A program made the translations under genes and the position numbers. Below are positions 4,309 through 10,943 of a stretch of DNA of 31,773 nucleotides, one piece after another. Where the stretch lies: the NCBI GenBank assembly GCA_005884985.1, contig VAYK01000013.1:1-31773 (forward strand). The letters run 5' to 3'. The DNA comes from Actinomycetota bacterium (GTDB lineage Bacteria > Actinomycetota > Thermoleophilia > Solirubrobacterales > 70-9). Each line of letters starts with the position of its first letter. The first letter of the stretch is position 1. Under the pieces are notes generated by a model. The model saw nothing but the letters and a program-made list of their open reading frames with translations, made no database searches and was not told the DNA's origin.

Positions 4309-4382
4309 GGGGGCGTAGCTCAGCTGGTTAGAGCGCCGGCCTGTCACGCCGGAGGCCGCGGGTTCGAGTCCCGTCGCTCCCG
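4309..4382 (+). tRNA. tRNA-Asp (anticodon GTC), CCA not encoded
   Basis: Acceptor stem GGGGGCG/CGCTCCC, D arm GCTC...GAGC, anticodon stem CCGGC/GCCGG with loop CTGTCAC, T arm GCGGG-TTCGAGT-CCCGT, discriminator G. Confidence 0.98.
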
Positions 4383-4427
4383 CTCGCTGTCCCTGCTCGG
4401 TACCGCTCGCCATCCATGGCTCGCTAC

Positions 4428-4448
4428 GTTCGAGTCCCGTCGCTCCCG
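4428..4448 (+). repeat. Exact 21-bp copy of the tRNA-Asp 3' end (att-like scar 1)
   Basis: gttcgagtcccgtcgctcccg is identical to 4362-4382, with 45 bp between the two copies. Confidence 0.9.
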
Positions 4449-4480
4449 TACAGCACACCTGCGGCTCTCCGGGCCGGTGA

Positions 4481-6385
4481 TCAGGCGATCAACGAGCGCG
4501 CGCCGGCGGCTCGCACGGCGGTTGAGAGAGTCTCCACGTCGTATGCGCCGTCGTGGCGGCGCTCGTTGATGAAGAAGGTGGGCGTGCCGGTCACCCCGCT
4601 GCGGTCGGCCGAGTCTACGTCCTCCTCTACCCGCGAAGCTCCCGCCTGCTCGCTGAGGTCGTCCCGGAAGCGCTCGAGGTCGAGGCCGAGTCGCTCGGCG
4701 TAGGCCAGCAGGTCGCGGGACTGCAGATTGTCCTGGTGGTCGAGCAGAAGGTCGTGCATCTCCCAGAAGGCGTCCTGATTGGCCGCCGCCTCCGCCGCCT
4801 CCGCCGCCAGCTGGGCGCTCGGGTGGACGTCCGAAAGCGGCAGATGGCGCCAGACGTAGCGGACGTCTGCGAAGTCGGCGAGCAGCTCGCGGACGACCGG
4901 CTCGGCTCGGCCGCAATAGGGACACTCGAAGTCGCCGTACTCGACCACCGTCACCGGCCCCTCGGTGGGGCCGCGGACGTGGTCGCGCTCGGGATCGACC
5001 GGCACAGCGAGGTCGACCAGCGTCTGTGACGTGCCGAAGAGGGCGCGAATGCGCGCCCTGCGGGGCAGCCGTGCCGTGGCGCGCAGGACGAGCCAGCTCA
5101 GCAGCGCGGAGCTGGCCGCCGCGCTGAGCACGCCGAGCTTTGCCTGCTCGAGCTGTTCGCCGTGGAAGGCGAGGGTGGCGATCAGCAGCGAGACCGTGAA
5201 TCCGATGCCCGCGATCGCGCCCCCTCCGGCGACGGCGGCCCAGCCGACCGGCGGGCGCAGCCGTTCGCGGCTCAGCCTCGTCACCAGCCAGGACATGCCG
5301 CCGATCCCGATCGGCTTGCCGAGCACGTAGGCGAAGAGAATCCCCAGTGTGATCGGCGAGGAATAGGCGCGGGAGAGGAAGCCGCCGTTGATCGCTATGC
5401 CGACGTTGGCAAGCGCAAAGAGCGGCACGATCACGTAGCTCGTCCAGGGGTGGTAGAGCTGCTGCATGCGAGCGTTGGGCGAGACGGCCGCCCGCAGACC
5501 CGCCCGCGCAGTTCGAGCGAGCTCGGGGGTCGGCTGCTCGCGGAAGCTGCGGAACAGCTCCGTCGCCCGCTCCAGCTCACCGCGCCCTGCCGGGTACGCC
5601 AAGGTGATCAGACCGACTGCGACTCCCAGGACGACGGGATCGACGCCGGACTCGAACAGCGCCACCCAAGTGGCCACGGCAAGCAGGAAGTAGACGAGGC
5701 CGTGGCGGATGGGGACGGCGCGGGCGACGAGCGCCAGGCCGAAGATGGCGGCGGCGATGAGCAGCGGCGTGAGCGTGACGTCGGCGCTGTAGACGAGGGC
5801 GATGACGGCCAGCGCGACGACATCGTCGACGACGACGATCGTCAGCAGAAATGACCGCAGCCGATCGGGAAAGCGCGCCCCGACCAGTGCAAGCATGCCG
5901 AGGGCGAAGGCCGTGTCGGTCGACATTGCGACGCCCCACCCGTGCGCCGAGGGATGACCCGTGTTGATGGCCAGATAGATCGCGATCGGGACGGCCATGC
6001 CGCCAAGGCCGGCGAGAACCGGCAGCGTGAGCCGGCGGCGCTCCCGCAGCTCTCCGATGTCGAACTCGCGCCGCACCTCGAGCCCGACGACGAAGAAGAA
6101 AAAGGTCATCAGGCCGGTGTTGACCCAGCCGCGGAGATCCTGGGAGATTCCAGAGCCGCCGACGCGGATCGAGAGGCCCGTGTGCCAGACATCCCGGTAG
6201 GAGGAAAAGTCGATGTTGGCCCAGGCCAGCGCCGCCAGAGCGGCGCCGAGGAGGACGAGGGCGCTGCCGGTCTCGGTGCTCAGAAACTCGCGCAGCGGGG
6301 TTTCCAGGCTGCGAGCCCAGGCCGTTCGACCCGTGAAAGTGCTGCGAACGCGCGACGGCGTCGCTCGGCCAGGGCCGACACTCAC
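4481..6385 (-). CDS. nhaA: NhaA-type Na+/H+ antiporter fused to a C-terminal DsbA/thioredoxin-like domain
   Basis: LMTFFFFVVGLEVRRE, STDTAFALG, VVDDVVAL, GKPIG and GIGFTVSLLIA motifs. C-terminal VEYGDFECPYC, YVWRHLPL and GVTGTPTFFIN. Confidence 0.93.
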   Translation of the reverse strand: MSVGPGRATPSRVRSTFTGRTAWARSLETPLREFLSTETGSALVLLGAALAALAWANIDFSSYRDVWHTGLSIRVGGSGISQDLRGWVNTGLMTFFFFVVGLEVRREFDIGELRERRRLTLPVLAGLGGMAVPIAIYLAINTGHPSAHGWGVAMSTDTAFALGMLALVGARFPDRLRSFLLTIVVVDDVVALAVIALVYSADVTLTPLLIAAAIFGLALVARAVPIRHGLVYFLLAVATWVALFESGVDPVVLGVAVGLITLAYPAGRGELERATELFRSFREQPTPELARTARAGLRAAVSPNARMQQLYHPWTSYVIVPLFALANVGIAINGGFLSRAYSSPITLGILFAYVLGKPIGIGGMSWLVTRLSRERLRPPVGWAAVAGGGAIAGIGFTVSLLIATLAFHGEQLEQAKLGVLSAAASSALLSWLVLRATARLPRRARIRALFGTSQTLVDLAVPVDPERDHVRGPTEGPVTVVEYGDFECPYCGRAEPVVRELLADFADVRYVWRHLPLSDVHPSAQLAAEAAEAAANQDAFWEMHDLLLDHQDNLQSRDLLAYAERLGLDLERFRDDLSEQAGASRVEEDVDSADRSGVTGTPTFFINERRHDGAYDVETLSTAVRAAGARSLIA

Positions 6386-6693
6386 GAGCCTTCGAGCAGC
6401 CCGGCCACGGCCGTCGCGACCCGTTTGCCCTTCGCGGTCAGCCGGTACTCGGCGTGCGGCGGACGGCCGGAGACGAGCTGGCGCTCGACGATGCCGGCCG
6501 CCTCGAGCTGCTCGAGGCGCTCCGAAAGCGTGGTCGGCGAGACCCCCGGCAGGGACTGGCGAAACTCGTTGAAGCGTGCCGCGCCGCTGGAGCAGGCATA
6601 GATCGTGCCCAGCGTCCAGCGGCGCTCCAGCAGGTCCGCGACGGCGCGGAGCTGCGAGGGGACCGGGTCGCAGCTACGACACCGCGGCGACAT
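6382..6693 (-). CDS. HxlR/DUF24 family winged-helix transcriptional regulator
   Basis: DLLERRWTLGTI...RFNEFRQSLPGVSPTTLSERLEQLEAAGIVER...EYRLTAKG. Its stop overlaps the nhaA start. Start at ATG 6693 is inferred. Confidence 0.88.
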   Translation of the reverse strand: MSPRCRSCDPVPSQLRAVADLLERRWTLGTIYACSSGAARFNEFRQSLPGVSPTTLSERLEQLEAAGIVERQLVSGRPPHAEYRLTAKGKRVATAVAGLLEGS

Positions 6694-9684: not shown

Positions 9685-9780
9685 CCTCATGGCGGGCACG
9701 GCGTGGCTCTCGTGCCGAGAGGAAGTGGCGAGTCACGGGAATGCGGTGAACGGCCGCTCTGACGCCTCCTCCGGGTCGCT

Positions 9781-9822
9781 CCTGTCACGCCGGAGGTCAC
9801 GAGTCCGAGTCTCGTCGCTCCC
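9781..9822 (+). repeat. 42-bp diverged copy of the tRNA-Asp 3' half (att-like scar 2)
   Basis: cctgtcacgccggaggtcacgagtccgagtctcgtcgctccc versus 4340-4381: 37/42 identical, starting one base before the anticodon loop. Confidence 0.92.
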
Positions 9823-9968
9823 ATCTCTTTACGAACCACTCATCGGCCACCAGAATCCCGCTCACCTTGCCTCCCCCGGCACCGCAGAGCTTGCCTGAAG
9901 TGAAGCCCTGGACACCGCCCCTCTTCCGATCTAGGGTTGCCATAGACGGGTATGCCTAGGGAGAAGCC

Positions 9969-10846
9969 ATGAAACGCATCCGGATCGGAAGGCCGAGGTC
10001 GATACGGCTGGGCCGATCGATCCTGGTCGCAGTCGCGCTGGCGGCCACCGCGGGGAGCTCGGTCGCGATCGCACTGCGGAGCGCCCGGCAAAGCAAGACG
10101 ATCCCCTCGGGGTCGTTCGGAACGGCGGTCGCCAAATGCCGAGGCCGAAGAACTGCCGTCTCGGGCGGATTTGCCGCGCCCGGGTTCGACGCCAATAACG
10201 GGCCGACGATCGGCCGTCTCAGCTCCAAGCGAGTCGGCAGGCGTCGGATCGAGACCCGGGCCCTCAACTTCGGCAACCAGGCAGGCGACCTGGTCTCGTT
10301 CGCTTATTGCGCGCTGCACGATCATGGGCTCCGGGTGAAGTCTGCAAGCAGCTGGGTCAAGCCAAACGCCCTCGGATCGGCCGTCGCCAGATGCCCCCGC
10401 GGCACCGAGGCACTCGGGGGCGGCTTCGGCATCCATCGGTTCTCCACGACCCAGGGGCCGCAGGTGACCACCCTCACCTCGAAGCGGCTCGGCGAGCGCC
10501 GGTGGAAGGTGGTCGGGGTGAACTTCAGCGGGGTGCGAGCCGGCAGGCTGATCGCCCACGCCTACTGTGAGGCGGCGCCCTTCAAGCCCGTCACCAGGTC
10601 GAAGGAAGTGACGCCGCCGCCCACCGGCGGCCTCAAGACCTTCGACGTGCGTTGCCCTAACGGGAGTGGGGCGTTCTCTGGGGGCTTCGATGGCCACGTC
10701 AAGATTCAAGGGAACCAATCGAAGGCCACGACGGCGATCGCCTCGAGGCGAGCGTCCGGTGGCCGCGTTTGGCGCACCTCGGCGCTCAGCGCTTCGTGCC
10801 CAACCCTGGGTCGACGACCGCCTACGCCTACTGCCGCGAGCGGTAG
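9969..10846 (+). pseudogene. Secreted protein with three ~75-80-aa Cys-paired repeats; frameshift near 10790
   Basis: Basic N-region, hydrophobic core and AIA cleavage site. Repeats follow the pattern C..(S/G)GGF...AYC. The third repeat is completed only in the shifted frame (FVPNPGSTTAYAYCRER, TAG at 10844-10846). The supplied ORF runs to 10853 with an unrelated tail. Confidence 0.72.
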
Positions 10847-10929
10847 GAGCTGACTAGGGCGCCGACAGTCATGCCCTTCGTCCGCTAGTCGGCAGTCTGC
10901 GAAACGGCAGCCCCACGCTGGCCAAGCCT

Positions 10930-10943
10930 CCGTCGCTCCCGCT
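10930..10943 (+). repeat. 14-bp copy of the tRNA-Asp 3' terminus (possible att-like scar 3)
   Basis: ccgtcgctcccgct is identical to 4371-4384 and is intergenic. Short and GC-rich, so weaker evidence than the other two copies. Confidence 0.55.

Follow-up and report, generated by a model that had tools for sequence, protein, structure and literature searches.

Contig VAYK01000013.1 of the actinobacterial genome assembly GCA_005884985.1 (Solirubrobacterales), which is 31,773 nucleotides (nt) long and is referred to below as the window, contains a 6.6-kb interval between a tRNA-Asp(GTC) gene and a gene for a ferritin-like protein that is probably the decayed filling of a tRNA-Asp integration hotspot common to a lineage of uncultured soil Solirubrobacterales. 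The window is the entire contig C22 of a metagenome bin (1.94 Mb, 228 contigs, 72% complete, 69% GC). According to the scheme developed for tDNA islands, a tyrosine integrase recombines the attP site of an element with a tRNA gene; the 3' part of that gene is then newly provided by the element, and the old 3' part is displaced to the element's far end (PMC4383910; PMC100330). The interval holds an intact tRNA gene followed by three partial copies of its 3' part (hereinafter copies 1, 2 and 3), of which copy 2 is accompanied by a recognizable element arm.

The existence of the hotspot is apparent from the comparison of the locus among relatives, for which positions 3000-12500 of the window were used as the query against 40 relatives and complemented with a census of 59 further loci, in which the distance from the tRNA to the ferritin-like gene ranges from 146 bp to more than the 10 kb that were fetched. 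The left flank (a fumarylacetoacetate (FAA) hydrolase family gene and the tRNA) and the right flank (from the ferritin-like gene onward) are colinear in nearly all members of the genus with variable spacing, and in the fetched loci homology to the window stops at 4385 and resumes exactly at 10997. The gap between the tRNA and the ferritin-like gene in about 60 Solirubrobacterales genomes ranges from 142-146 bp, a near-empty site (G013/L061), to more than 20 kb. Some of the gaps contain readily recognizable elements. Genome G005 (locus L025, 5467-16845) carries at tRNA-Asp an 11.3-kb phage-like element that encodes an AAA_25 protein, a DNA methylase, an HK97-type capsid protein and, at a distance of 19 bp from the tRNA, a 391-amino acid (aa) integrase (PF00589, E 2e-21), and has a 44-nt exact repeat at the far end. 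The closed chromosome of G004 contains a tandem of two islands (L035 1077-12501 plus L036 1-11592, about 211.1-233.6 kb of the chromosome), both of which carry an integrase (E 1e-28 and 3e-18) and a tRNA fragment of their own; island 1 (9.5 kb) encodes a TrwC relaxase-helicase and a 442-aa integrase and has a 47-nt end copy, and island 2 (9.8 kb) combines its integrase with a signal peptidase and a 43-nt end copy. A 4-kb island in G008 has a 46-nt copy together with a gene for a Na+/H+ exchanger and a weak match to an integrase, and a 5.5-kb island in G020 has a 44-nt copy and no integrase. Same-strand copies of 43-49 nt were detected within 10 kb of the tRNA in 11 of the 59 census loci. The integrases of G005 and of island 2 of G004 are 52-53% identical, and the others show 24-28% identity to these two and to each other; given such divergence at a single site, several integrase lineages use the anticodon-loop block of the tRNA. 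In 9 census loci (G005 included), a member of the G005/G004-island-2 family is encoded at a distance of 19-93 bp from the tRNA; in three of these loci, only a short relic of 80-87 aa was matched.

The variable interval between fixed flanks and the integrase-bearing islands of relatives thus bear out the view of the first-pass annotation of this DNA, made from the nucleotide sequence alone, that tRNA-Asp is an integration site, and the near-empty locus supplies the empty-site version that it proposed to look for among relatives. The arrangement that the annotation named as contrary evidence, that is, lon-hxlR-nhaA colinear at tRNA-Asp across relatives with no empty site, does not occur; neither lon nor nhaA follows tRNA-Asp in any relative locus examined (the fetched loci and the 59-locus census). 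The features of the interval and its flanks are as follows.

3413-4252, minus strand: FAA-hydrolase-family gene (PF01557, E 2e-69); conserved left flank, colinear with the tRNA in all relatives
4309-4383, plus strand: tRNA-Asp(GTC), the attachment target (ARAGORN; Rfam RF00005, 71.8 bits); the sole tRNA-Asp of the assembly
4384-4427, no strand: 44-bp spacer ("islet 1"), unlike the tRNA and unlike relatives
4428-4448, plus strand: copy 1, 21 nt, repeating tRNA nt 54-74 exactly and in direct orientation (from the T loop up to the discriminator)
4481-6385, minus strand: NhaA Na+/H+ antiporter (PF06965, E 2e-124) fused to a DsbA-like thioredoxin domain (PF13462/PF01323)
6382-6738, minus strand: HxlR-type transcription regulator (PF01638, E 3e-19)
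6674-8995, minus strand: Lon protease (Lon_C, AAA, Lon_lid and LON_substr_bdg domains)
9003-9099, plus strand: inverted internal scrap, about 100 bp, of a luciferase-like monooxygenase gene (about codons 137-170), 81% identical to L006 1056-956
9335-9663, plus strand: frameshifted relic of a P-loop NTPase/SF1-type helicase (GPPGSGKT ... SSHKAINNLL in translation; weak nSTAND3/AAA_11/AAA_19 matches, best E 3e-6)
9737-9780, plus strand: inner arm of an integrative element, abutting copy 2 on the left, similar to the G020 and G004 island ends
9781-9823, plus strand: copy 2, a decayed anticodon-loop-class attR that corresponds to tRNA nt 32-74
9969-10853, plus strand: gene for a secreted triple-repeat protein of no Pfam family ("islet 3")
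10930-10943, plus strand: copy 3, an exact 14-nt match to tRNA nt 63-75 and one further base; 53 bp separate it from the right flank
10997-11806, minus strand: ferritin-like (Dps/bacterioferritin-type) gene (PF00210, E 1e-34); conserved right flank

All three copies are located downstream of the tRNA, on the same strand, and are terminal, ending at nt 74, 73/74 and 75+1, respectively. In a blastn-short search of the whole 1.94-Mb assembly with tRNA-Asp as the query, copy 1 matched nt 54-74 at 21 of 21 positions (E 3e-5), copy 2 (9781-9822) matched nt 32-73 at 37 of 42 positions (E 8e-6; 37 of 43 if extended to 9823), and copy 3 matched nt 63-75 and the first base past the tRNA at 14 of 14 positions (E 0.48 against the genome), confirming the coordinates and extents reported initially. 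No copies of these fragments were found elsewhere in the assembly, and therefore they are not a dispersed repeat. On the cloverleaf, by our own numbering, copies 1 and 2 start at the final base of the 5' strand of the T stem and of the anticodon stem, respectively, and copy 3 starts at the second base of the 3' T-stem strand, in agreement with the starts at the T arm, the anticodon loop edge and the 3' T-stem strand described before; the segments delimited by the copies, estimated then at about 45 bp, 5.3 kb and 1.1 kb, measure 44 bp (the spacer), 5374 bp and 1121 bp. A 21-mer search that tolerates up to three mismatches recovers the tRNA together with copy 1 and the T-arm portion of copy 2, with 0.02 matches expected from shuffled sequences, and copies 1 and 2 are certainly beyond chance. 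Transfer RNA genes were called with ARAGORN and Rfam, and at E <= 0.1 Rfam returned nothing across 4000-11300 beyond tRNA-Asp. Copy 1 has sharp edges on both sides. Two simpler origins of this copy were considered and rejected: the spacer and copy 1 are not a degenerate duplicate of the tRNA, because the local alignment of the 44-bp spacer to the tRNA scores no better than shuffles, and copy 1 is not a tandem duplication, because the DNA that follows it is unlike the DNA that follows the tRNA.

Copy 2 is the decayed attR of an element family that is also represented in G020 and in island 2 of G004. Window positions 9737-9822 are 83.7% identical to the end of the G020 island, and positions 9737-9827 are 84.6% identical to the end of island 2 of G004; the similarity to both arms ends directly past the tRNA fragment, the pattern expected of an element arm joined to differing host flanks. 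The start of copy 2 at nt 32 falls within the identity blocks of the anticodon-loop (A) class, the exact 43-49-nt copies of relatives beginning at nt 28-32. Copy 2 also records an allelic difference: it mismatches the resident tRNA at 6 of 43 positions and the tRNA-Asp allele of G019, G006 and G016 at 3 of 43. This second allele is distinguished by C48T in the variable loop and by a compensatory T-stem pair, G53A/C63T, and the other three changes in copy 2 represent decay, one of them hitting the conserved TTC of the T loop. By our own estimate, the chance that six random substitutions match all three allele bases is roughly 1e-4 or less. Judging from these bases, copy 2 retains the alternative tRNA-Asp allele, which implies that the recombining sites bore different alleles, and the difference between the tRNA and copy 2 is compatible with strand exchange in the anticodon loop. 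Under the tDNA-island scheme (PMC4383910), from which the direction of the exchange is inferred, copy 2 would be the former 3' half of the host gene, and the present 3' half would be derived from the element. In the genus at large, the tRNA-Asp genes (L013-L032) combine two 3'-half alleles, the rarer one being that of G019, G006 and G016, with at least four D-loop variants; replacement of the 3' half by integrating elements could explain this mixing.

The segment of about 5.3 kb between copies 1 and 2, which had been taken for island DNA, turned out to consist mostly of a native block, nhaA-hxlR-lon, that is normally found next to tRNA-Arg(ACG). Window positions 4473-9002 are 89% identical to contig C14 of G020 and 83% identical to contig C8 of G001, both away from tRNA-Asp, and the corresponding values are 84-86% for the flanks and 91-93% for other shared contigs. 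The divergence of the block is in line with these values; nhaA-hxlR-lon is native and not foreign cargo. In G020, the block is located between tRNA-Arg(ACG) (plus 3.7 kb) and FtsH, with lon abutting FtsH; lon is found 4-30 kb from the DEAD-box helicase/tRNA-Arg(ACG) locus in G004, G005, G008, G012, G015, G020 and G024, and its orientation relative to the tRNA-Arg locus is constant in G004, G005, G008, G012, G015 and G024. In the genome analyzed here, the neighbor of FtsH (contig C101) is a different gene, and the block is therefore truly absent from its customary location. Homology of the lon side with relatives ends at 9002, and the approximately 0.8 kb of lower-GC debris between lon and copy 2 (GC content falls to 0.64-0.66 over 8800-10200) comprises the monooxygenase scrap and the helicase relic. 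The 33-aa scrap itself produced no Pfam hit; its counterpart, L006 1056-956, lies in an open reading frame with a PF00296 domain (E 4e-53), that is, a luciferase-like monooxygenase, and in G003 this monooxygenase gene directly adjoins hxlR-lon. An inverted piece of it at the lon junction is what an inversion breakpoint within that gene would leave. The helicase relic, for which one X was inserted at the frameshift in the profile search, has no homologue in related hotspots (tblastn), and a tblastx search with 9003-9830 returned only GC-rich noise.

A change in the position or the orientation of the block is seen in G001, G002, G003 and G011, too. In G011 (L029 5583-10278), the order after tRNA-Arg(ACG) is a carbonic-anhydrase islet, an exact tRNA copy of 41 nt, inverted lon-hxlR, nhaA cut to a stump of about 50 bp and, finally, an exact copy of the tRNA end, 22 nt long. 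The fragments in G011 thus form another stacked array, which has the Lon block between its members. As a separate observation, the exchanger of G008 (L021 4338-5753) is of the CPA type, a family other than NhaA, so cation/proton antiporters have reached the tRNA-Asp hotspot twice, by different routes.

The claim that all mobility genes have been lost from the locus stands. A six-frame search of the genome for PF00589 yielded three recombinase genes, none of them on this contig (two look like Xer-type recombinases by size and strong full-domain scores, and the third is partial, at a contig end), and tblastn with four hotspot integrases detected no integrase relics in the window; nothing in the interval can now move by itself. 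In the history that we propose, an element would have recombined at the anticodon loop and left copy 2 at its far end, with the element arm beside it. At least one further event would have left copy 1, which is exact and nearest to the tRNA and hence would be the youngest, and an older event possibly left copy 3. Deletions would then have removed the integrases and nearly all of the element DNA, and one or more rearrangements, including at least one inversion that broke the monooxygenase gene, would have brought nhaA-hxlR-lon into the element remains from its usual site near tRNA-Arg(ACG). Of the three successive integrations postulated in the first-pass annotation, the one that left copy 2 is upheld, copy 1 points to a further event, and the third is in doubt because copy 3 may be a chance match.

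The short copies, 1 and 3, can be read in other ways. It is quite possible, although we lean against it, that the same hotspot was used by a single integrase class and that both are truncated long anticodon-loop attR copies, in which case the different start points say nothing about the crossover sublocation. All intact elements at tRNA-Asp, with three integrase lineages of 26-28% mutual identity among them, carry blocks of 43-49 nt, no intact element with short (17-24-nt-type) tRNA-end repeats was found in the related hotspots, and the starts of short copies in these hotspots are scattered (-28, -20, -18, -17 and -13; also -15 and -9), as truncation would produce. The original assignment of each copy to a different integrase sublocation is accordingly not sustained, only the anticodon-loop class being backed by intact elements. 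What speaks for separate short-block events is that short copies close to the tRNA recur: the 21-nt copy of the window is at +45, L057 has one of 24 nt at +12, L091 has one of 30 nt at +167, and a 17-nt 3' end copy is located 56 bp after the tRNA-Ile of the genome analyzed here (C108). Random deletion would seldom give such an outcome; a 22-nt end copy of tRNA-Arg(ACG) is present in G011 as well. Furthermore, one recognized attachment class (PMC4383910) consists of blocks of 13-24 nt that begin in the T loop or at the T/acceptor junction and run through to the 3' end; the extent of copies 1 and 3 fits this class, with no intact counterpart and with scattered starts of the short copies. Copy 3, in addition, could well be a chance match in GC-rich DNA, a reading that we hold to be somewhat improbable and that would leave two scars and make the repeat gene an old resident. 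The analytic first-order Markov expectation of a same-strand match of at least 14 nt to the last 33 nt of the tRNA in the 6.5-kb interval is 0.006, wrong-strand 14-15-mers (about 2 per 479 kb of related hotspots) translate into about 0.03 for the interval, and the blastn-short E value against the genome is the 0.48 given above, so that copy 3 is only nominally significant, that is, suggestive. The sequence around copy 3 is conserved in no relative, and homologues of the repeat gene, which are located elsewhere in G018 and G021, occupy this hotspot in G001 and L053 with no flanking scar. Conversely, copy 3 lies on the right strand, extends as far as the tRNA's 3' end and is located 53 bp from the flank, where the oldest displaced end is expected; matches of at least 11 nt to the last 33 nt of the tRNA in 15 hotspots of the genus (101 kb) number 7 on the same strand and 0 on the wrong strand, all 7 end-anchored; and in G005 an 18-nt tRNA-end copy occurs 0.5 kb past the 44-nt attR, the same geometry. 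In the wider census, 12-13-mers are equally frequent on both strands, and therefore the strand asymmetry backs only matches of about 14 nt or longer, weakly. On balance, we slightly favor a real scar. Two further details of this region can be mentioned. The 18-nt copy of G005 lies after an EthD-domain gene. The 35 bp just before copy 3 (10890-10924) are 94% identical to G001 L033 3557-3591, which lies about 2.5 kb past tRNA-Asp and has no tRNA fragment behind it; the stretch before copy 3 could be an old element-end piece or a regulatory motif.

The Lon block might, alternatively, be true cargo of an integrase-less, att-flanked cassette that hotspot integrases moved in trans between tRNA genes, which we consider unlikely. 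Such an entity would resemble the cis-mobilizable elements (CIMEs) known from the literature on streptococcal integrative and conjugative elements, which are att-flanked remnants without recombination genes. The block is bounded by att-like repeats, copies 1 and 2, and has no integrase or other recombination genes; copy 1 agrees with the T-arm portion of copy 2 at 18 of 21 shared positions; in G011, lon-hxlR is situated between the 41-nt and 22-nt tRNA-Arg(ACG) fragments; and the place and orientation of the block vary among G000, G001, G002, G003, G011 and G020. However, one of the bounding sites, copy 2, is decayed (6 of 43 positions, the conserved T-loop TTC included), the content is native and of the housekeeping kind, with divergence matching the rest of the genome, and there is no sign of mobilization. 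The junctions differ, too: here a fragment abuts the intact 3' end of nhaA, whereas in G011 it abuts the 50-bp nhaA 5' stump, and the orientation of the fragment relative to the block is not the same in the two genomes. Across most of the genus, both the side on which lon lies and its orientation with respect to tRNA-Arg are constant, as expected of a fixed flank, and the scrap of an old neighbor gene that came along indicates ordinary rearrangement. Because the junctions differ between genomes and the scrap accompanied the block, a hotspot-driven rearrangement of a native block is favored over an att-flanked cassette, and the more specific proposal that tRNA-targeting integrases shuttled hxlR-lon(-nhaA) from tRNA-Arg(ACG) (G011, G020) to tRNA-Asp here is quite improbable; if it were true, a core proteostasis gene would be mobile in this lineage as an att-flanked cassette lacking an integrase.

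The remaining alternative, a chimeric contig in which the tRNA or a short repeat served as the point of joining, is very unlikely even for a 72%-complete bin of 228 contigs. Both flanks of the contig are the conserved hotspot flanks, in the same order and orientation in relatives where both were found, and the site that lon occupies in G020 is filled by another gene in this genome. Moreover, parts of the stretch are present in 20 soil or sediment runs from 16 studies, and Logan contigs from 4 studies cover 4419-4615 (run X2, no differences), 8690-9064, 8828-9049, 8622-9291, 9784-10025 and 10815-11060 (X4). These contigs, from other runs and studies, bridge 4448/4473, 9002 (in three studies), 9822 and 10997, so that the junctions of copy 1 with nhaA, lon with the debris, copy 2 with the repeat gene and copy 3 with the ferritin-like gene have been seen independently. 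Neither circle-junction nor empty-site contigs are among the listed Logan pieces, and contigs cannot show absence. The Logan contigs also contain single-base differences, an extra T after 10791 in the repeat-protein gene (X3) and, within the helicase relic, an additional A after 9439 (X1), each of which reflects either variation between strains or an error in the contig. In one contig of X1, 9126 is connected to 10905 via 26 other letters, so that the helicase relic, copy 2 and the repeat gene are skipped and the skipped part ends 25 bp ahead of copy 3; the shorter of the two sides of this contig measures just 21 letters, and it might come from another organism.

Several observations weigh against the reading of the interval as a decayed hotspot filling. 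The step from the tRNA to 4419 (4354-4419) is covered by no listed independent contig, because the tRNA region is shared by many organisms (summed depth thousands-fold). There is no integrase, excisionase or transfer gene in the window, so that integration is deduced from relatives. The spacer (4384-4427, searched with blastn-short), 4449-4480 and 10944-10996 have no match in more than 40 related loci or in the genome, and thus the spacer and the 53 bp past copy 3 are small islets that are not tied to any known element; the DNA just before the ferritin-like gene is different in each relative, and a conserved tRNA-to-ferritin spacer was not found. The scarless occurrence of the repeat gene in G001 and L053 fits an old resident no less than cargo and weakens copy 3 as a boundary. 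Finally, a native block of 4.5 kb lies between two scars, and the other half of the broken monooxygenase gene, which would be expected, is missing.

Loci of this kind are already known, and the lineage is little studied. With the tDNA islands collected in Islander (PMC4383910; PMC100330), the locus shares an intact tRNA gene with same-strand 3' fragments, variable DNA, an empty site in a relative, an anticodon-loop identity block of about 44 nt and tyrosine integrases next to the tRNA in relatives; it differs in that most of the largest interval is native chromosome. The integrase filter of Islander would reject the window, and an integrase is present in G004, G005 and G008; the window, lacking one, is a fossil and not an operational Islander member. 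Among 3919 islands, Islander lists 125 arrays of at least two islands and 4 of at least three, with an integrase required for each member (PMC4383910), so that fossil arrays such as this one remain uncounted. As in those tandem arrays, which represent accretion at one tDNA, several far-end fragments follow one tRNA, and G004 represents the live form here, its two islands being separable by the rule that resolves tandem arrays; the window, in contrast, escapes that rule, as it consists of fragments only, which are unequal (21, 43 and 14 nt), one decayed and one doubtful. A 44-bp direct repeat of a tRNA end flanks the PYG1 island of Pyrococcus yayanosii (PMC9897764). The same work deals with partial tRNA genes that mobile elements left in prokaryotic genomes and with their mis-annotation as genes, whereas ARAGORN calls no fragment here. 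The locus is a worked example of the aging of a tRNA landing pad, from live elements and a tandem to an empty site and a fossil. A displaced fragment that keeps another allele points to mobile elements rewriting the 3' half of a host tRNA gene, and a hotspot that holds a native Lon block suggests that such sites drive ordinary chromosomal rearrangement and not only the gain of foreign DNA; neither the allele fossil nor the captured Lon block alters current understanding.

Fragments of other tRNA genes occur in the same genome. A 22-nt T-arm copy is located 5 bp after tRNA-Ala TGC (C165), and a 19-nt copy lies 1.5 kb after tRNA-Pro GGG (C176). Copies of the 5' half, 40-41 nt long, are found 1.3 kb and 5.1 kb upstream of tRNA-Arg CCT (C19) and tRNA-Gly GCC (C123), respectively, and a 47-aa integrase relic (C123:24593-24754) adjoins tRNA-Gly.

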